Assembly: GCF_006345805.1 (NCBI RefSeq) | Contig: NC_043003.1 | Span: 45,942,001-46,006,000, forward strand | Reading direction: 5' to 3' | From: Octopus sinensis | Lineage: Eukaryota | Length of the DNA: 64,000 bases | Translations under genes and position numbers: made by a program | The notes under the pieces: model-generated | Told to the model about the DNA's origin: nothing | Seen by the model: only the letters and a program-made list of their open reading frames with translations | The model's database searches: none | Part shown: positions 1 through 54,214 of the stretch, one piece after another | Position numbering within the stretch: the first letter of the stretch is position 1 | Layout: each line of letters opens with the position of its first letter

Positions 1-214
1 AATATTGAAAGTACTAAAGAGCATCTCAAGAGAAAGCTATTGTGTGCCCTTTGATTCTTCAATGAGAAAAGTTCATGTACAGCGAAGTAATCGATAGAAG
101 TGCATACAGTAAGTTCCAATGAATCTGATTCATAAGTTCAATATTCCTATAGGTAGTAAAATTATTGCAGTCAAGGAGGTACACTGTCTTCAAGAGTTTT
201 AGAAGATCATGTCA

Positions 215-412
215 ATATTGGATTCAAATTTTGGCATAAGGCTAGCAATTTCGGGTAAGGGTTAAGTCCATTACATCGATCTCAGTATTCAATTGGTACT
301 TATTTTATCGATCCCGATAGGATGAAATCAAAAGTCGGTCTCGGTGGAATTTGAACTCAAACGTAAAGACGGTCGAAATGCAGCCCGGCGTGCTAACGAC
401 TCTGCCATCTGG
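215..412 (-). mobile_element. SINE family A (tRNA-derived), degenerate copy
   Basis: Reverse complement matches the family A consensus seen at 44261 (…gagttcaaattccgccgaggtcgactttgcctttcatcctttcggggtcgataaattaagtacc…). Confidence 0.8.
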
Positions 413-714
413 CTGCTCTAAATCATCAATAATATTAATACGCTTTTGTACGTACCTGTCGTGTGCGTCACACTTCTTTGAAGTGGAAAAGCGAGAGAGA
501 GGAGAAGAGAGAGAAAGAACTAGACAAAGGGAGAGGGAGTGAGGGAGTGTGAGAGAGAAAATGAGAGACAGTGAGTGGTGACGGCGTTCGCTTTCTTTTT
601 AAATGTTTCAGAGAGGACGTAAAAGAGAAAGAAAGAGAGTGCTGTGATATTTTGGTTGGATTATATAGTCATAGGTTTTACGTTAGTTTCTATATTCTGT
701 AACTGTCACAATAT

Positions 715-865
715 ACTTTTCTAGGCCTAAAATTTTTATGGGGATGGAGCCCGTTGATTAGATCGAAATCAGTATACAACTGGTACTTAATTTATCGAAC
801 ACGAAAGGACGAAAGGTAATGTCGACCTCGGAAGAATTTGAACTCAGAACGTAAAGACAGACGGT
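715..865 (-). mobile_element. SINE family A, partial
   Basis: tggtacttaatttatcga…gtcgacctcgg…tttgaactcagaacgtaaagacagacg, same as copies at 21.2-21.9 kb. Confidence 0.75.
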
Positions 866-1137
866 CATAATATGCAAACATTTCTCATGACACCAGTACA
901 CTGTTTACAGATGCTTACATTTTTTACGCTTTCTGTTAATTTTTCACGGGTCCACCTAGTATGAATATTAATACACGTCTCGGTGTGGTATACATTCACT
1001 ATTTACCAAATAGCTGAGTTACAACCTCATGTAATGATTACCACCGCTATGGATAACGTAGATACATACATACGCATATATAATTGTAATATAGCTATAT
1101 ATCTATTTATCTCAGTTTTCTCTCCCCCCTCTCTCAC

Positions 1138-1463
<326 letters not shown>

Positions 1464-1965
1464 TGTTCATAATGCGTCTGCGTGTGTCAAAAAGTGAAGA
1501 CAGTTTATTAATTATAGAGAAAAGAATGCCGCATGTATTCAAAGAGACGAAGGAAACAATTTTCATAAATTTCTTACTGAAAGACGTCGGACTATGTATA
1601 TATCTCAATAAAATATTCTCAATAATTCGTAAGCGTGATTGAAGATGCTGTCCGTGAAATGATGGATATCAATATTATATAAACTTACAGCCAACTGTAA
1701 CGTCAAGGAGGACAGCGATTTATTCTTTAGTTTCCTCTTAGTATTTTTTAGTGATCTAGTGAACTTAATAAAAAAATATAGGAATTAAATTTGAAATGGT
1801 GATAGTATATCTTCAAAATATTACCGAATAATTCACAAAACATTGAGAGATTAAACTAATTATAATTATAATTCCAAATATTCTTTTAGAAATAGAAGTA
1901 AAAGTGTCTGTCCCATAAAACTTCCATGCATATTCACATATGTATACTTATGTAGGCATTTGTGC

Positions 1966-2053
<88 letters not shown>

Positions 2054-2066
2054 GATAACTTTACAC

Positions 2067-2140
2067 CTCGGACTGATCAGTTTCTGCCTCTTTCTAGCAA
2101 AACACAGAATATGTTTGCTAAGGCTGGCTTCATCAACGAG
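2067..2140 (-). ncRNA. Type I hammerhead ribozyme motif (family 1, inverted copy)
   Basis: Near-exact reverse complement of 2500-2573. Confidence 0.65.
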
Positions 2141-2499
2141 TCGCCTAAATTGAATCGAGGTCTGCAGCGATGTGAGACCATGTGTTGATCTCGACTACTA
2201 GCAGATCTTAACTTTTCAAATCTCTGCGCAGACGCAAAACTTACACGGCAGTATAGGGCATGCCGGGAAGAATTTTACGAATAAATCCATCAAGTAATAT
2301 GCGAATATAAACAAGAAGGGTAGTAATAATATTGGTTACTACCAGGTGCCCAGCACAAAAGACGAATTAGTCATAAGACAAAATATTATTCATATAGAAA
2401 AATATAATTAAGGGCTCCTAAATTAGGATGCCGAGTGCTGGGAAGTCGAGATCAACACATGGTCTCACATCGCTGCAGACCTCGATTCAATTTAGGCGA

Positions 2500-2573
2500 C
2501 TCGTTGATGAAGCCAGCCTTAGCAAACATATTCTGTGTTTCGCTAGAAAGAGGCAGAAACTGATCAGTCCGAG
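2500..2573 (+). ncRNA. Type I hammerhead ribozyme motif (family 1)
   Basis: CUCG-UUGAUGA-A-GCC…(UAGCAAACAU/GUGUUUCGCUA hairpin)…GGC-A-GAAA-CUGAUCA-GUC|CGAG; stem I CUCG/CGAG, palindromic stem III ACUGAUCAGU, GUC cleavage triplet. Confidence 0.65.
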
Positions 2574-2956
2574 GTGTAAAGTTATCGGTAAACGTTTTTG
2601 ATTTTCACTCTCGATAAATTCATCCCCTTTTTGTGTTCCCAGCACTCGGCATCCTAATTTAGGAGCCCTTAATTGTATTACTACATGAATAATATTTTTC
2701 TATATGAATAATATTTTGTCTTATGACTAATTCGTCTTTTGTGCTGGGCACCTGGTAGTAACCAATATTATTACTACCCTTCTTGTTTATATTCGCATAT
2801 TACTTGATGGATTTATTCGTAAAATTCTTCCCGGCATGCCCTATACTGCCGTGTAAGTTTTGCGTCTGCGCAGAGATTTGAAAAGTTAAGATCTGCTAGT
2901 AGTCGAGATCAACACATGGTCTCACATCGCTGCAGACCTCGATTCAATTTAGGCGA

Positions 2957-3028
2957 CTCGTTGATGAAGCCAGCCTTAGCAAACATATTCTGTTTTGCTA
3001 GAAAGAGGCAGAAACTGATCAGTCCGAG
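2957..3028 (+). ncRNA. Type I hammerhead ribozyme motif (family 1, second direct copy)
   Basis: Same motif; predicted cleavage after 3024, 455 nt downstream of the site after 2569. Confidence 0.65.
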
Positions 3029-3130
3029 GTGTAAAGTTATCGGTAAACGTTTTTGATTTTCACTCTCGATAAATTCATCCCCTTTTTGTGTTCCCAGCAC
3101 TCGGCATCCTAATTTAGGAGCCCTTAATTG

Positions 3131-3197
<67 letters not shown>

Positions 3198-3200
3198 ATA

Positions 3201-3460
3201 CCGGAGTAAGCACATGAATGTGAAACAAGGTGGAAAAAAAGAGTACTTAAACACCACAGGAAGAGTAATATGCTTTATTTAAAAGCAGCAGAAATATAAC
3301 AAAAGCTGTTACTCGGATTTTCACGTTCCCGTTCGTCAGGAACGTGAATCTCCGAGTAACAGCTTTTGTTATATTTCTGATGCTTTACTGTCCGACTAAT
3401 GGGAACGTGAAACTCCGAGTAATAGCTTTTGTTATAGTTCTGCTGCTTTTAAATAAAGTA
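3201..3460. mobile_element. Foldback Penelope-type terminus with degenerate HHRs (family 2); homologous to 54018-54247
   Basis: Left arm 3273-3340 is inverted twice (3339-3386, 3388-3458); the minus strand reads CUGACGA-ACG-GGAA-CGU-GAAA-AUCCGAGUA-ACAG. Confidence 0.7.
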
Positions 3461-3469
3461 TATATATAT

Positions 3470-5400
3470 ACTTTATTTTCGAAGGGGTACGTCCTACATA
3501 ACTGCGATCTGATGGATCTCCCTGGCTTTTCAATGATCTTAATTTTGAGTTTGGTCTCCTTCAGAGCTGTCCTAAATCTACGGGTTAGTTTCCCATGAGG
3601 TGTGGCCTCTACAAACATCCCTCCTTGATATTTGTTAGCCATATACCCTGTGTTTACTTTGCTTATGTCACAAACTCACTGCAAATTATTCCAGCCTTTA
3701 CCGTTGTGTCCAGGGCGGATACCACTGGCTTCATTACAGATAATGCTAACTTCTTTCTAGCTCGCCTGTATACACGAATCCTATCTTTCTGGTCATATCC
3801 AGAGAATTGCATGCGATGCATGAAGTTATGAACATTTTTCCTTGTTTCATAGGGTTCGCATAGGGTGGGAGGGGACACGTTATTCATTATCCTAAGTCTG
3901 CTATCAGTATGTTGATGTTCGTATTGTGTGACAAAGCTATGGGTTTCATGTAATAGGAGTGAAGGAGCGACACTCTGTTTACATTCTCTAACCAAAGTTC
4001 CGTATCAAGGACGGGGAGTCTACTGTTAGGGTGCCTAGTGGGGTAATCTATAGTTATACTTTGGTGGATGGAGTTATCTACTTGTTGGATACTCTCCATT
4101 GTGCTTCTCTCGGTTTCTACATTACATTTACTAGGATTTGTCCTAACTAGAATAATGATGCCATCTACAGTAAAGCAAAACGGTTGTGGACTGTTTAGCT
4201 AAGAAGTGTTTACGTTTTGTCACGCCAAGTCATGAAGAAGTCAGCCATATCTCCAGCCACATCGACACCAATGGCAGCACCTTGAACCTGCATGTATAGT
4301 TTCCTGTCAAATTTCATTATGTGACTCTTCAAGGTGGTTCTTACGCTAGCTCCTTTAGCATGCGCAATCATTCTTTTCATCTAATTGTCGTTCTCAGGGT
4401 CCAGGGAGGGTATGGTCCAACCACTCTAGCGCTCTGTTAGGTGCTTTTCTTTACTGCCGAGGTGATGGTGGGTAGTCTTCCCCTTTGTGAACTGGTGGGG
4501 CAGATTCTACTTAGGCCATGGTTGTCTAAGTAGTTACGGTCGTAGTTTAGTGTAAGGAGGCGGCCCAGTTCAAACGTGTTGACTTCGCGGAACACTACTT
4601 CACTTTCACAGATAATCTCAATGCATTTCTCCACTTCAAAATTTATCTCTAGATGGGCAGAGTGAAACCACATCCATACTACCCATTACACAACCTGCGA
4701 GGTCGCTGGAGTGGTTACAACCACTGATTCTCCTGAGGAGGTCCTCTGTGTTCACACAGACATCCGGGGATATTTCAGTGAGTGGTTGTGACACATAAGT
4801 AGGATAGCCTATAATTGCTGAAGATATTGGCTCCACAAACTGGCCGAGTTGGGGGCCCCATAACAAGGTTAGGGGTTTATGGATCTTTCGAAAATTGTAC
4901 AACGTAGGAACATCTTGGCTGAATGCTTGGAAATTGTGTGCAGTCCGTTTCCTGAGTTGGGAGTATGTTGCATTGAGAAGTTTTCCTACTCTTTCGTGTT
5001 CCTGCGGTGCAATCTATCTCATGCTACTTATGTGTTGTTGTATGATCTGGACATAATTCTGTGGCCTGTCTGTCGACAGTTTTCCAGACTTGTCCGTAAG
5101 GAGGCACACTAATTACTTTTCGTAATTCACTGTTTCAGTTTTTGAAGGCCTTTGGCGACTGTTGAACTGAGCTGGTGGGTCTCCCACTCCTTAAATCTTT
5201 TAGTGGTTTTGTTATATCGGTCTAAGATGTGTTGGGGTCTATTTGTAGCAAAAAAAATCTTCGTTTCGGTCTCACTGTCAGTTAGTGGAGGGATACATAC
5301 CCTTTTGCTGAAGGATAAGTCTGTGGGGTAGATCCTCGTCATGTCGTACGATTTGTCGTTGAGTTTATAGAAGACAGTCTAGGGTGCTACCTGTGTTATT
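3470..5400 (-). pseudogene. Decayed Penelope-like retroelement reverse transcriptase (no GIY-YIG domain visible)
   Basis: Ordered fragments: KIHKP; GSMDVVSLCPS (motif A); LYMQVQGAAIG (motif B, ~4270-4300); SIHQSITIDYPTRHPNSRLPVLD…LLHSYYMKP; MQFSGYD; FVEATPHGKL…IIEKPGRSIRSQLCRTYPF; many stops and frameshifts. Confidence 0.8.
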
Positions 5401-5684
5401 GTTGTTGCTGTAGTAGTTGTTGTTGCGGTTGTCGGTGTTGTTGTTGCTGCTGTTGGCGATGTTGTTATTACTGTTGTTGTAGTTGTTATTGTTACTGCTG
5501 CTATTGTTGTTCTTCTTCATGTGGGTGTTGATGGTCTTGAATGTGGTGCTGGTGTTGGTGATACTGTTGTGTGTATTTTTATTTGCGTGCGGGGTATTGT
5601 GGTCGTTATTGCTATTGTAGACACTATTGTTGTTATTATCATTGCAATTATTGTTGTTACTGTTATTGTTTTGGTTTCGTAATT

Positions 5685-5805
5685 TGTGTTGTTGTTCTGG
5701 TTTGTTGTTCTAGTTTTGTATGTGTGTTGTTGTTCTGGTTTGTTGTTCTAGTTTTGTATGTGTGTTGTTGTTCTGGTTTGTTGTTCTAGTTTTGTATGTG
5801 TGTTA
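5685..5805. repeat. 38-bp tandem repeat x3 in GTT-rich low-complexity DNA upstream of the Penelope RT
   Basis: ctggtttgttgttctagttttgtatgtgtgtt at 5697, 5735, 5773. Confidence 0.9.
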
Positions 5806-6111
5806 TTATAGTTATTTATGTGAAGGATGTTGTGGTGATTTTCACTTTTGTTGTCACTAACATTGCTATTGTTGCTGTTTTGGTTTCGTATGTTTGTCTT
5901 GATGTTATATTGTCCTAACCTCCATCTTATTTTCAAGAATATTTTTCCGATATCAAACAATCAATTTTTCACACCTTACATGTAACGAATTTCGGTTGTA
6001 ACTCTAAGGTATGCACTTCATCCGTATCTAGCTGTACTACGCCGTATATTCAGAAGTGTAATTGCTGCTCTTCGTGTATGTATATATATAAATATATATT
6101 CCTTTTCCTAT

Positions 6112-6146
6112 GTTTCTGACGAAGAGCTCCGCTCGAAACGTTAAAC
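6112..6146 (+). ncRNA. Minimal type I hammerhead (family 3) in a short Penelope-type terminal fragment (~6095-6250)
   Basis: GUUU-CUGACGA-A-GAGC-UCC-GCUC-GAAA-CGU-U|AAAC; stem I GUUU/AAAC, palindromic ACGU stem III. Confidence 0.8.
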
Positions 6147-6379
6147 CCTCCTTCTTTCCTTCTTTCCTGAGCGTCCAATAATACTATACTTGTTCCACGT
6201 CATCGCGTTGTTGTGTTTTCTCTTTGTGTTTTCATGTTTAGATTAACTATATATATATATATATATAATATATATATATATATATGTATGCATGTATGTA
6301 TATATATATACATTTATATACATATATATACATATATATATACATACATACACACATATATATATATGCACGTGTAGTT

Positions 6380-6494
6380 TCAGTCATTATAATGTGACCA
6401 TGCAGTGGCGCCACCTTAAAGAATTGGAGTCGGAGTTATCGACAACACACGCGCACACACACACATACGCACACACACACACACATTCACACAA

Positions 6495-6559
<65 letters not shown>

Positions 6560-6822
6560 CATTGATGCACACATACAAGCGGCATACAGGATTGGGAGAC
6601 AAATAAACATACATAATACATGCATGCATATATACATACACACGCAAACACACACACACACACATGACGATCTTCTTTCAGTTTTCGTCTACCAAATCCA
6701 CTGACAAAGCCTTGGTCAGCCCGAAGCTATAGTAGAAGAACTTGCTCAAGGTGCCACGCAGTGGGACTGAACCTAGAACCATGTGGTTGGGAAGCAAGCT
6801 TCTTACCACACAGCGACGCCAG
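6380..6822 (-). mobile_element. SINE family B (tRNA head + CORE-like segment), degenerate
   Basis: ctaccaaatccac…caaggtgccacgcagtgggactgaacc…accatgtggtt…ttaccacacagc. Confidence 0.75.
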
Positions 6823-7139
6823 TATCTAACATACAAAAAAATATTTATTCTTATGGAGACAGAAAATCATGACAAAGACGATTTTTCATCTTCCGTTCGT
6901 AGTAAGAACAGAACTCTGATGTAACATGTATAATAAACCTTGTACGTACCTACTGCCAGATTGCGTGGACTAATAACAGTTATGTGCCCCAGCCTTGAAC
7001 AAAACTTAACATAGGCGACAGGATATAAATCTTCGATAATCTAACCGCTCGATTGTCAACAGTTCAGCGTGTGAATGTAAATATATGAGAGCCATTCACA
7101 CTCTTCTCATTATCATCTTCCCTCACTTCTTTCTTCATG

Positions 7140-7180
<41 letters not shown>

Positions 7181-9524
7181 TGTCTTTCCTCTTCCTCCGT
7201 TTGCTGTGTTTCCATTACATTTATTTATTTATTTATTTATTTACATACTTATTTATCATTTAAATGGCATAGACTTCATCTCGTGTTGCTAAGAACAGTT
7301 GGGGGATGAGAAGAAGGTCAGTGGTTCGCTAACGGGGTGGCGCTTGGATGAGCGAGTGCTGAGTGGAGTAGGTTATGGTGGAATGATAAATGTTGTTTTG
7401 TTGCAGTATGTATTGGTGTTTTAATAAGAAAATGGCCATATGGTGTGATTTCAGGAAACATATGGTGTCTGCCATCACACCAAGTCTGAACACGTGAATA
7501 ATGGGAGAATACGGCACTCTAATACATTGTCAGCCAATAATTCCTTCAGCACACATATTCTCTCTTATATAACATCTCTCTATGTCTTCCCATTCTGTTT
7601 GCTTTCCTTTCATGCTTTCTAGATCTAATTCTTTTGTTTTTTTCTTCCTGGTTCCGATTATAGTATATCTCGTTCCTTTGCATTTTCTTCTCTGCATTTT
7701 CTCTCACTTTCAAATAATCTTTTTTCTTTTGTTCTTAATTACATTTCATACCTGTTTCTCGTTTCTTTCATTCTTTTCAACTTGCTTTAATATCTATTTA
7801 TTTCCTCCTTTTTGCCTCCATCGCCCCTGCCGTCTCCTTTTTTTTTCTACATTTGTTCCTCTTCCTCCTTTTCTCCTCCTCCTTCCTCTCCTCGTCCTCA
7901 TTCTCCTATTTTTCTTCTTCTCGTTCTGTATTTTCTCTCATTCTCTCCCTTTCTCTCTGTGCACTTTATTTGTACCTTCGTTTCTTCGTTTCGTCTCAAT
8001 TAATCTTTCATTCTCTACTCCTTCCCTATTCTCGCTCTTATTTCTCTCTCTCTCTGTTTTTCTCTGTCTTTCTCACTCTTCCTCTGTCTCTGTCTTTCTC
8101 ACTCTTCCTCTGTCTCTGTCTTTCTCACTCCTCCTCTGTCTTTGTCCTTCTCCCTCCTCCTCTATCATTGCCTTTCTCATTCTCTCTCTCACTCCTTCTT
8201 TCTCCCTGCCCCCATATTTCGTTTCTCGTGTCCTTCTGTCCCACGTCAGCCCTGAACAAACAGATCAATTGTGAAAGGCGTTCCAGCGATGGCTTACACA
8301 ACATTCATCATTCTGGTCGTTTCTATTTTAGGATGGTGGTAGAATGAATATTGAAGGATATTTTGCAACTAATTTTAGTAGGTCGAGTGACTTATATATC
8401 TCCTGTTGTATGATAATTTGTACTACACTGGACTATATTGAATAATCAGTGATATGCTATGGTATATTATAGTGTCGTATGGCGTATTGTGATTTGATTG
8501 TAGTCTAATATAGTATTTCGTTGAATAGATTTTGTTGCTGCTTCTGCAGTTGTAGTAGTTGTTGTTATGCCTCGGGTATTCTCTGATTAGGCATCCCTCT
8601 GATCCCAGCAAAGATTATCCAATCCTTTTAGGAACATACAGGACCATATTATCCAACACCTTACTTCTTTTCTGAAACCGAAATTTGAATAGGATTACAA
8701 AGAGATTCTATTGCTATTTCTTGTACCACGTGTAGCCGCACAGTGGCTCCATCGTTGGCGCGAAGTGGGTAATTAATATTACATGGTATGGCATCCTATG
8801 ACAAGGTAGAGCATGATATAATGCGATGGGGCATAGTATCGTGTGATAGGATTTAATATGGCCAGATGTGACAAATATGTGATATTGCATGGTATGGTAT
8901 GATAACGTATCGTTTATACCAGCACGATGTCATGTGGCGTAATATAGTAGTTATATATCATACTCTGTTATGAGTATGGAAAGGAATGGTGTAGTGAGGT
9001 GTAATATATTGTCGTTGTATCAGGTACAGTATTGAAGTACGTTGTAGTTCACTGTTCTACAATAAACTAACGGTATTCTATAGCACACTGTGTAGTATAT
9101 GAGCACATGGCTGTGTAGTCAAGACGGTGTTCCTTCAGTATTCACGAGCTTCATTCAGTAAATATTTTCTTCCTTAGCCTTAGGTCGTCTAAAGGTTGTG
9201 GATGGAATTGAACAGACTAAAACTATATTGCTTGAAAAAGGCTAGCTTCTTTACACACAGTTTCACCTTTTATCCGCCTAAAGATTACGTTAACGGAGAG
9301 ATGCATGCGGAGTAGTCAGTCTTTTACACTGTATAATGAATAGGTAATTCTGTTTATACAAGCGAAATACTTGTTAGTAGAAATCAACGCGAAAGCCCTT
9401 GCTGCTGTTTAGCTCAGGTCAGAGATCGGACGTAATTGTTTAGAGATGATCAAAGGAATTCCAGCCGTGGCCTTCCCGTATTTTCCCCTGTGTAGGGAAC
9501 CCCATACACCATATACGAACATGC

Positions 9525-9830
9525 AGGGCCGGATTAAGACATATCGAGGCCATAAGCACTTAAAAGATTATGTAATCCAAAATATTTAACAATAACGAAA
9601 CCATAAAATACATTTTTATTTTCCGATACGAAACAGAACAACAAGAGAGAAAATAATGTTTATTTTTGTATACTTCCCCTTTATTTATATTTGGAAAGTT
9701 TCCTCCTACATTTTTGAATTGCAGTCTTTGATCAGATCCTCAAATTTAATTTTAGGTAACACATCCGCATCTAACTTAGTAGAGATAAAGGCATCCCGAA
9801 TATTATATTAGCAAGTTTAAAGTGATTTCT
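9525..9830 (-). mobile_element. hAT DNA transposon 3' end remnant
   Basis: Terminus cagggccggattaag at 9524; minus strand with frameshifts reads LSLLS…DADVLPKIKFEDLIKD-AIQKCRRKL, resembling the hAT C-terminal dimerisation region. Confidence 0.55.
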
Positions 9831-10669
9831 TTTGTGCCGTATACTATTTACCATTCTTGCGGTGCCCCTTTCTTCCATTGATGTCCTCAGCACGTGCTTA
9901 TTTTGCTTAATGGTTAACCCAGCGCTGCGTATATGGCTTTCTTTTAAGACTATAGACACGTGGTTGAGTGTTGCAATATCAGGTTGCAATATGCGCTTTG
10001 AAATTGTTGTTCAACCGTAAGAGAGCTCTTACCGAGCATACATTTGACCACAGGCGTTCCAGCTATGACCACACTTACCTCTTTGATTTTGTTTTTTTTT
10101 CTTCATTTTTTTATATATATTGCAAGGTTTTCTCCCTTTTTAAGACATTAGTGATTTCAGTGAGTTTTAGCATGTTTAGTATGCATTCGTGTGTTTATTG
10201 TTGTTCCTTAATTGTAGGTCAACCATTATTTAGGACTACATTACGAAATGTATCTGTCGTGTTTTTCTTTTATTGGTAGCAGGATGTGCTTTGAAGTTGA
10301 TTTGGCTAATAGATGTTCCTATGTAAATGTGATGGCTTCATATTGCTGTCGAGGAAGATAAGTGTGGTGGCTCAGTACTAATGGGGTTGAATAGTGTTAA
10401 TGTTGGTAATTAAAGGTTAGTATTAGTGATAGAATATCCTTATTTTTTCATCCAAGTTCACATCCGATTAAGCATGTTTCACAGCAAAGGCGTTCCAATC
10501 GTGACTATCCGTTCAATGTTTCACAGAAATTATATTGTCAAATGTGTCCTTTAACATTTGGCATGGCTCGTTGAGTCATGTCGAATTTCGTTGCTGTTTT
10601 CAGCAAATCGAGTGACCATATAGAGGCACCGTTGTTGGATGGGGCTGGTAGTGAATTTTGTGGCTGTTG

Positions 10670-24483: not shown

Positions 24484-24539
24484 GTCTTTGATGACGGAAT
24501 ATCCCAAACTCGGAAATATCCTAGAAACAGCTGTAAGAT
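24484..24539 (+). ncRNA. Type I hammerhead motif (family 4)
   Basis: GUCU-UUGAUGA-[imperfect GGAAUAUCCC/GGAAAUAUCC stem II]-GAAA-CAGCUG-UA|AGAU; palindromic ACAGCUGU stem III. Confidence 0.6.
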
Positions 24540-54123: not shown

Positions 54124-54161
54124 CTGTTACTCTGAGTTTCTCGTTGCCGTTCATCAGACAG
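54124..54161 (-). ncRNA. Type I hammerhead (family 2), minus arm
   Basis: Exact reverse complement of 54177-54214. Confidence 0.8.
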
Positions 54162-54176
54162 TTTTTCTAGCAAAAA

Positions 54177-54214
54177 CTGTCTGATGAACGGCAACGAGAA
54201 ACTCAGAGTAACAG
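54177..54214 (+). ncRNA. Type I hammerhead (family 2), plus arm
   Basis: CUGU-CUGAUGA-A-CG-GCAA-CG-A-GAAA-CUCAGAG-UA|ACAG; stem I CUGU/ACAG, GNRA-capped stem II, near-palindromic stem III, GUA triplet. Confidence 0.8.

Follow-up and report, generated by a model that had tools for sequence, protein, structure and literature searches.

How does a noncoding stretch of some 450 nucleotides with a hammerhead motif come to lie in direct and inverted copies inside a TA microsatellite, and which enzyme put it there? The question is raised by an insertion near the left end of the window (the whole stretch of DNA analyzed, 64,000 nucleotides of Octopus sinensis). The best explanation overall is probably that this is an ORF-less tandem of hammerhead-bearing units of ~450 nt, likely a retrozyme, copied into (TA)n by a reverse transcriptase (RT) and endonuclease borrowed from a Penelope-like element (PLE). 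That it is an ORF-less hammerhead repeat mobilized by a PLE is highly probable. The fuller reading, held with moderate confidence, is that a non-LTR retrozyme was retroposed, likely from a circular RNA, by a Penelope-like RT that targets TA and primes on both DNA strands.

Positions in the unit are numbered as q (window coordinate = 2443 + q). The parts of the insertion and of its target site are, with strand:

1968..2051, no strand: (TA)n run, the left half of the target site, into which the 3′ end of the inverted arm runs.
2050..2444, minus: inverted arm, 395 nt, consisting of q193-457 followed by q1-147, with a 17-nt deletion; its 3′ end, at 2050, is an atypical site.
2444..3133, plus: forward arm, 690 nt or 1.5 units (one unit and 235 nt of the next); its 3′ end is the family's second end site, q235.
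2500..2573, plus: hammerhead motif 1, with stem I at 2500-2503/2570-2573, core UUGAUGA at 2504-2510, an extra A, a long stem II at 2512-2554, another extra A, GAAA at 2556-2559, a palindromic stem III and GUC; predicted cut after 2569.
2957..3028, plus: hammerhead motif 2, with its core at 2961 and a predicted cut after 3024.
2067..2140, minus: hammerhead motif 3, with its core at 2136 and a predicted cut after 2071.
2570..3024, plus: predicted excised monomer, 455 nt, 38% GC, with no ATG frame longer than 46 codons.
2660..2678, plus: second 3′-end (putative priming) site, ...CCCUUAAUUGUAU, q235, which recurs at 3133; 46 of 149 arm ends lie within a few bases of it.
2780..2800, plus: main 3′-end (putative priming) site, ...CCCUUCUUGUUUAUAU (2792) and ...UCGCAUAU (2800), just 3′ of a hairpin; it takes 85 of 149 arm ends.
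3134..3195, no strand: short (TA)n and then (TG)n, the right half of the target site, the (TG)n part lying within the 3147-3195 flank.

The original prediction described about one and a half direct copies and one inverted copy, nearly identical. The direct part stands, as 2901-3133 is 98.7% identical to 2444-2678, with a period of 457 that becomes 455 past a 2-nt indel. The inverted part is not a whole copy: read from 2444 to 2050, it covers 0.87 of a unit and matches 2636-3045 at 95.4% over 412 columns, without a single substitution, the differences being one 17-nt deletion and one 2-nt indel. The embedding in (TA)n is confirmed by the run at 1968-2051 on the left and by the short (TA)n with (TG)n (3147-3195) on the right. 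The three hammerhead motifs are also found as described, with GUC sites before the predicted cuts after 2569 and 3024 on the plus strand, 455 nt apart (3024 − 2569), and after 2071 on the minus strand; they are of type I with a palindromic stem III (ACUGAUCAGU). The prediction did not mention that the core of all three motifs is UUGAUGA (U3·G8) and not CUGAUGA. The insertion is a two-arm, back-to-back event, and an atypical one, in that neither arm ends at the main site of the family; it is a single ordinary insertion without sign of a host function. Downstream of the main end site, at 2826-2846, the unit reads ...UCCCGGCAUGCCC in a frame that closes after 2-6 codons; this faintly resembles the start of the ORF of a candidate PLE family (...UCCCGAAAAUGCCA), possibly as a vestige of a parent ORF or else by chance.

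The covariance-model check suggested by the original prediction gave no hammerhead, as the Rfam scan of positions 1-10000 returned none at E ≤ 5 and only microsatellite-driven miRNA hits. A relaxed hammerhead descriptor alone returns 10 rows in the 64-kb window. Minimum-energy folding of the motif regions in the window was rejected as support for a ribozyme, since they fold no better than shuffles (z about 0). Hence, the motif needed support from outside the window. Other hammerhead-like motifs occur along the window. At 6110-6145 (plus strand), a minimal one with CUGACGA, an extra A, a 4-bp stem II, GAAA and a tiny palindromic stem III sits in a short element that ends in (TA)n at 6248. At 54128-54210, two identical minimal motifs lie on opposite strands, back to back between (TA)n runs, and are probably a small twin-primed PLE remnant. 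A further motif, with a U3 core, is found at 24488-24535 (plus strand).

The unit belongs to a family that is spread over the genome. A search of the octopus's own assembly gave 231 matches in 40 scored candidates out of 1037, mostly head-to-tail arrays, and thus the tandem arrays to which the original prediction pointed do exist; there are at least 367 units (367 exact matches to a conserved 25-mer), in arrays of up to ~19 pieces (L031). One hammerhead pattern has 291 exact matches genome-wide, and the marker of one subfamily has 64. The mapped sample comprises 88 loci with 92 insertions (four duplicate loci left out), with 4 loci added later, and it is biased, because the best hits of the similarity search were taken first and the remainder came from the first 100 of the 291 pattern matches. 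Units are 445-457 nt long across the family, and the unit itself has 38% GC and a longest ATG frame of 46 codons. At the mapped loci, arrays consist of units and part units only, without an LTR pair around an internal region, and the ends of the element always abut a microsatellite or a different, unrelated flank. No PLE ORF is joined to the element at any of the 92 loci examined; matches to PLE proteins (with two PLE families as queries) occur at 6 of the 92, each more than 1 kb from the element. Hence, the unit is not an ordinary pseudo-LTR in the loci seen, which agrees with the earlier view of it as retrozyme-like. At the level of sequence, the features tested (tandem units, type I hammerhead, no ORF, low GC, no LTRs) are those of a metazoan non-LTR retrozyme. 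The plant LTR retrozyme, with type III hammerheads and paired LTRs, is ruled out because the motif is of type I and the repeats are tandem.

Two copies at L051, 5.6 kb apart, were considered as a pseudo-LTR-ORF-pseudo-LTR element and rejected, being two separate insertions with no long ORF between them. At L051 (G000:C4:62449500-62459400), L049, and L053, insertions of the family lie within a few hundred bases to 5 kb of one another, as separate events or as duplicates. At least three other, more diverged families, at L111-L126 (G000 C1-C3), have the architecture CUGAUGA-A-GC...GC-A-GAAAC and a long stem II, their copies being 72-90% identical inside each family. The A-GC...GC-A pattern has 704 matches, those of the retrozyme family included, and in the 16 loci of other families examined, the copies are short and solo with no linked ORF; a GIY-YIG piece in L119 was rejected as an ORF linked to such a copy, being part of a separate insertion. 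No relatives were found that combine the stem III of the retrozyme family with a short stem II.

The case that the predicted ribozyme is real rests on conservation across the family, including compensated changes. Among 211 parsed motifs, the core is C3-G8 in 178, U3-A8 in 25, and U3·G8 in 8, and C3·A8 never occurs; genome-wide, all 37 matches with A8 have U3. The four stem III sequences (ACCGCGGU, ACCGUGCGGU, ACUGAUCAGU, and ACUGAUCGGU) are palindromes or nearly so. The junction is intact in 235 of 242 motifs, with N17 being A (136), U (64), or C (35), and never G. The stem II region spans 43-45 nt between the core and GAAA, and at the base of stem II, GCU/AGC is exchanged for GCC/GGC; 16 of the 211 motifs have GCC/AGC, the third pair of stem II then being a C·A mismatch. 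With A8 occurring only with U3, a stem III that stays palindromic, and no G at N17, the ribozyme looks selected. The U3-A8, stem II, and stem III swaps lie within one lineage and thus represent few events, not many.

The U3·G8 core of the window's copies is a minority type (8 of 211 motifs, at 6 sampled loci), and such a core is weaker than C3-G8. The predicted catalytic fold lies 4.8 kcal/mol above the predicted minimum for the window motif and 2.0 for the majority type. On both counts, the insertion is a poor example of self-excision. In the literature, no paper was found on the activity of C3U/G8A. As a circle, the unit folds better than shuffles, with z of −3.3 (the window's 455-nt monomer) and −2.0 (30 shuffles).

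Metazoan non-LTR retrozymes (PMC7229834; bioRxiv 2026.07.22.740005; here and below, papers are cited for the parts of their text that were available) are likewise ORF-less head-to-tail repeats of a few hundred bases, with a type I hammerhead per unit, GC below 45%, dimers to long multimers, and PLEs in the same genome. The octopus unit, at 445-457 nt, is at the top of their 150-450 bp range (PMC7229834). The family differs from them in its 43-45-nt stem II, whose base is flanked by an A on either side, in its strict (TA)n targeting, in its two fixed internal 3′ ends, and in the back-to-back arrays of 51 of 92 insertions. Circles and cleavage are demonstrated for metazoan retrozymes (PMC7229834; bioRxiv 2026.07.22.740005) and are predicted for the octopus family. 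The hammerheads of PLE pseudo-LTRs (PMC4209133) share with the family the extra base between 9 and 10.1, G10.1-C11.1, an enlarged helix II, a palindromic helix III, and the swap of U3-A8 for C3-G8. In contrast to them, GAAA in the family is preceded by a second extra A (which may instead be an A·A mismatch at the stem II base), stem II is much longer, and there is no flanked ORF. A U·U at the base of stem II is present in the axolotl HHR_Amex2 (PMC7229834).

No description of the second extra A or of the 43-45-nt stem II region was found in the available text of PMC4209133, and octopus, cephalopod, and squid are absent from two of its three supplementary files. The terms "inverted," "microsatellite," "octopus," and "cephalopod" are absent from the main text of PMC7229834, as far as available, and its supplement may list further mollusc repeats. 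The literature search found no description of the family or of twin-primed retrozyme arrays, nor a work joining a retrozyme with twin priming; it is possible that Repbase or Dfam list the family by a different name.

The insertions bear Penelope-type marks, i.e., 5′ truncation, an inverted arm, two internal 3′ ends, and a microsatellite target. Of 143 3′ ends, 130 run into TA-rich DNA, and as both flanks are (TA)n, a target site duplication, which in non-LTR retrozymes exceeds 4 bp when there is one, is not readable at the mapped loci. Under a stricter alignment (149 ends), 85 lie at the main site (q349 and q357), 46 at q235, and 18 elsewhere. The two AU-rich sites, ~115 nt apart, thus take 131 of 149 ends, and the other ATAT words of the unit are hardly used; both sites are preceded by a predicted hairpin and show the sequence CCCUU...UGU(UU)AUA. 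An inverted arm is present in 51 of 92 insertions, about half keeping a single arm. Among 54 inverted pairs, exactly one arm ends at the main site in 49, both do in none, and neither does in 5 (including the pair in the window); single-arm insertions end there in 33 of 41 cases. When only simple inverted pairs are counted, 45 of 46 have one main-site arm, against 23 expected under independence (P 6.5e-13). Hence, the two DNA ends were not primed independently, and most likely they share one RNP. The lengths of the two arms in inverted pairs are uncorrelated (rho 0.02), and a correlation was discarded as a sign of two RTs on one circle. The arms cross the predicted cut site in 121 of 143 cases, twice or more in 59 and 16 times in one, without a scar, and 5′ ends fall at this site once in 143 (3.4 expected). 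In 13 of 46 inverted pairs, both arms are longer than one unit, and the long arrays still have both ends at exact priming sites.

This record resembles that of endonuclease-bearing (EN+) PLEs of the Neptune/Nematis type, Naiads, and the anole Poseidon PAc (PMC8557442, PMC11167929), which also show partial tandems, a 5′-truncated inverted arm, a (TA)n bias, a tail at one end only, and two internal RT start sites downstream of the hammerhead; no target site duplication is visible in them. The one-sided use of the main site matches the PLE tails, often present at one end only and biased to (TA)n (PMC8557442), and the two end sites match the anole PLE, whose RT starts inside the RNA at two sites after both strands of AT-rich DNA are cut (PMC11167929). 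The family differs from these elements in having no RT or endonuclease, a "tail" of ~115 nt instead of 30-40, and many whole units per arm. Its ends also show TA microhomology to the target, whereas the start site of PAc lacks homology to the cut DNA (PMC11167929). How the tandem and inverted insertions of PLEs form has been called an open task (PMC8557442).

As for the source of the RT, a decayed PLE lies next to the insertion, at about 3196-5400 on the minus strand, with RT-like and C-terminal pieces broken by many stops and frameshifts and with decayed hammerhead-like motifs in an inverted terminal segment (~3290-3460); six fragments of it gave no Pfam hit. The original prediction was right to place a Penelope remnant ~350 bp away, but a role for it as the RT source is not supported and was rejected, because the remnant is decayed and has no DNA in common with the unit. 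Most likely, it adjoins the element through a shared taste for microsatellites. A young TA-targeting PLE family elsewhere in the genome is a better candidate. Young PLE families of this genome have open frames of 770-800 aa that match RVT_1 and, weakly and C-terminally, GIY-YIG; their endonuclease is preceded by a CX4CX2C linker, a mark of the Neptune and Nematis clades (PMC8557442). One of them has a type I U3-A8 hammerhead whose stem III is ACCGGU, and its two 3′ ends, ...CCUUCUUUCGUAUA and ...ACUUUGUUAUA, are separated by 40 nt and run into (TA)n, with one end site per arm in both of its complete inverted pairs (L119 and L151). Among the loci inspected, L157 (G000:C10:15310000-15316000), L156, L158, and L165 are a young TA-targeting PLE that measures ~5.85 kb between its hammerheads; its 3′ region, of ~1.9 kb, is microsatellite-like, its hammerhead is U3-A8, and stem II has a U·U pair at its base; a second PLE family (L159-L164) also has a U3-A8 hammerhead with an ACCGGU stem III. 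Between the unit and the two PLE families examined, the only match is one of 19 nt, AT-rich (E 0.33-0.38). The end words resemble those of the unit, yet there is no significant DNA match, and the partner PLE is thus a candidate only. Among the PLE families and loci examined (150 of 20077 PLE candidates in the genome were scored), none proved to be an autonomous parent with DNA in common with the unit.

The spread of retrozymes through RNA circles by PLE proteins is a stated hypothesis (PMC4209133, PMC7229834, bioRxiv 2026.07.22.740005). In the octopus, a tandem array would be transcribed and then very likely cut by its hammerheads, probably as dimers through the palindromic stem III, into monomers of 445-457 nt and some multimers. 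The ends of the monomer would, rather probably, be ligated into a circle. An endonuclease would nick both (TA)n strands, and the freed TA ends would prime in the RNA at the two AU-rich sites ~115 nt apart; the positions of the ends are read from the loci, and the priming is deduced from them. One DNA end would be primed at the main site and the other at the second site, both within one RNP; each RT would run past what had been the cut site, from a fraction of a turn to 16 turns, and the resulting cDNAs would be joined back to back; this geometry is that of the mapped arms, and the mechanism is our reading of it. More tentatively, the arrays may be a record of rolling-circle reverse transcription, with a dimeric Penelope-like protein on one ribozyme-made circle making, from two fixed sites, two opposite multimeric cDNAs off the cut (TA)n.

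Of 24 sequencing-run entries, 20 contain the unit, 14 of these being guessed to be RNA and none being on record as RNA. Contigs of 8 runs cover the unit, and 6 of the 8 have the head-to-tail joint, which in contigs cannot separate a circle from a tandem. The contigs of runs guessed to be RNA include the C3-G8 and U3-A8 types; the contigs have no pile-up of ends, strand and RNA ends not being readable from them. A low-depth contig (run X6, record 24), compared with L033:4719-5163, has 19 differences, 8 of the listed ones being T>C (A>G on the other strand), and can be read as a diverged copy or as edited antisense RNA.

Circles are, on balance, the usual template in our view. A selected cut that leaves no mark would most simply have been re-ligated, and the read-through without a scar thus favors re-ligation. 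The divergence between pieces (188 in all) is 0.8% between opposite arms, 0.7% between units within an arm, and 4.2% between different arrays. Three arrays (L037, L038, and L089) carry their variants in all units of both arms and share them with no other locus of the 2.7-Gb assembly. Of the four private-variant tests three held, and the variants of L034 were rejected as private since they mark a subfamily of 64 units at many loci. The nearest neighbors of units are found only in other arrays in 53 cases, only in the same array in 59, and tied in 76. Given this and the failure of L034, homogeneity alone proves little. Variants shared by only some units occur in 12 of 24 arrays with at least two whole units, some of them in homopolymers and others clean. 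Clean patterns include ABAB (L039 and L007), ABBA (L108), and the same TTC pattern in both arms of L038; L107, L109, and L036 are further cases. Such patterns call for later conversion or for templates of several units, be they linear multimers or dimeric or trimeric circles, and the private-variant test is weakened by L038 being both "private" and mixed. The period-2 or ABBA arrays (L039 2255-4178, L007, and L108) are possible traces of dimer or trimer templates.

The first alternative, which we consider unlikely and yet the most serious, keeps the same element and RT and takes as template a linear, uncut read-through transcript of a donor array, the hammerhead acting late, rarely, or in end-trimming, and the arrays being twin-primed multimer copies. 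Mixed-unit arrays with ABAB, ABBA, and mirrored patterns fit this, although dimer or trimer circles explain periodic patterns equally well, and circular dimers are seen in vitro (PMC7229834). In 15 of 42 cases (8.4 expected, P 0.013), main-site arms stop close to the second site (q235), and the reverse, second-site arms ending near the main site, shows no excess (7 of 42), as twin priming on linear RNA predicts. Collision geometry was nevertheless dropped as a test of the circle, being confounded by the 5′ ends of all arms, which are common near the second site. Also in favor of a linear template, monomer folds favor the noncatalytic form, the U3·G8 type nevertheless reached 6 of the sampled loci, and uncut RNA is the main substrate of the anole PLE, whose hammerhead is dispensable for insertion in vitro and at whose cut site no reads ended (PMC11167929). 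In Xenopus, 8 of 9 retrozyme dimers showed no cleavage in vitro (bioRxiv 2026.07.22.740005). Against it, linear copying needs transcripts of 7-8 kb with up to 16-19 selected ribozymes left uncut, and daughters cannot outgrow donors, yet three arrays are without a donor in the assembly.

That retroposed seeds of one or two units were lengthened later in the DNA, satellite-like, by unequal crossover or slippage, with arms homogenized by conversion, is the model favored in the available discussion of bioRxiv 2026.07.22.740005 and would suit the periodic and mirrored variant patterns. We consider it very improbable here. The longest clean arrays, L031 (19 pieces) and L033 (12 pieces), lack shared block variants (no shared columns; 9 and 10 singletons, which overstate age given assembly indel errors), long arrays have both of their ends at exact priming sites, and 13 of 46 inverted pairs have both arms longer than one unit. 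Least probable of all is that the unit is the pseudo-LTR of an unseen autonomous PLE and the loci its 5′-truncated copies, for despite the PLE-type ends and hammerhead, the match of retrozymes to pseudo-LTRs in Xenopus (bioRxiv 2026.07.22.740005), and a sample of 242 inspected motifs from at least 367 units (about a third lying outside it), the arms at 92 loci continue head to tail with further units and in no case with coding DNA, and at L051, the sole pair 5.6 kb apart, the copies are two insertions that enclose no long ORF.

Animal retrozymes are already known, and what the octopus family adds is an unusually clear integration record. The interest lies less in the copy of the window than in the junctions of the family, which is young, has readable ends at ~90 loci, and ties a retrozyme to PLE-type integration by junctions and not by co-occurrence. 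It names two priming sites, offers natural C3-G8, U3·G8, and U3-A8 ribozyme variants, and turns the choice between circle and linear template into a direct experiment, so that the retrozyme-PLE circle model becomes testable. If that model is true, a 450-nt, TA-targeted circular RNA would be a substrate for a telomerase-related RT, and rolling-circle copying would explain the tandem, inverted, and one-sided "tail" structures of PLEs in one mechanism.
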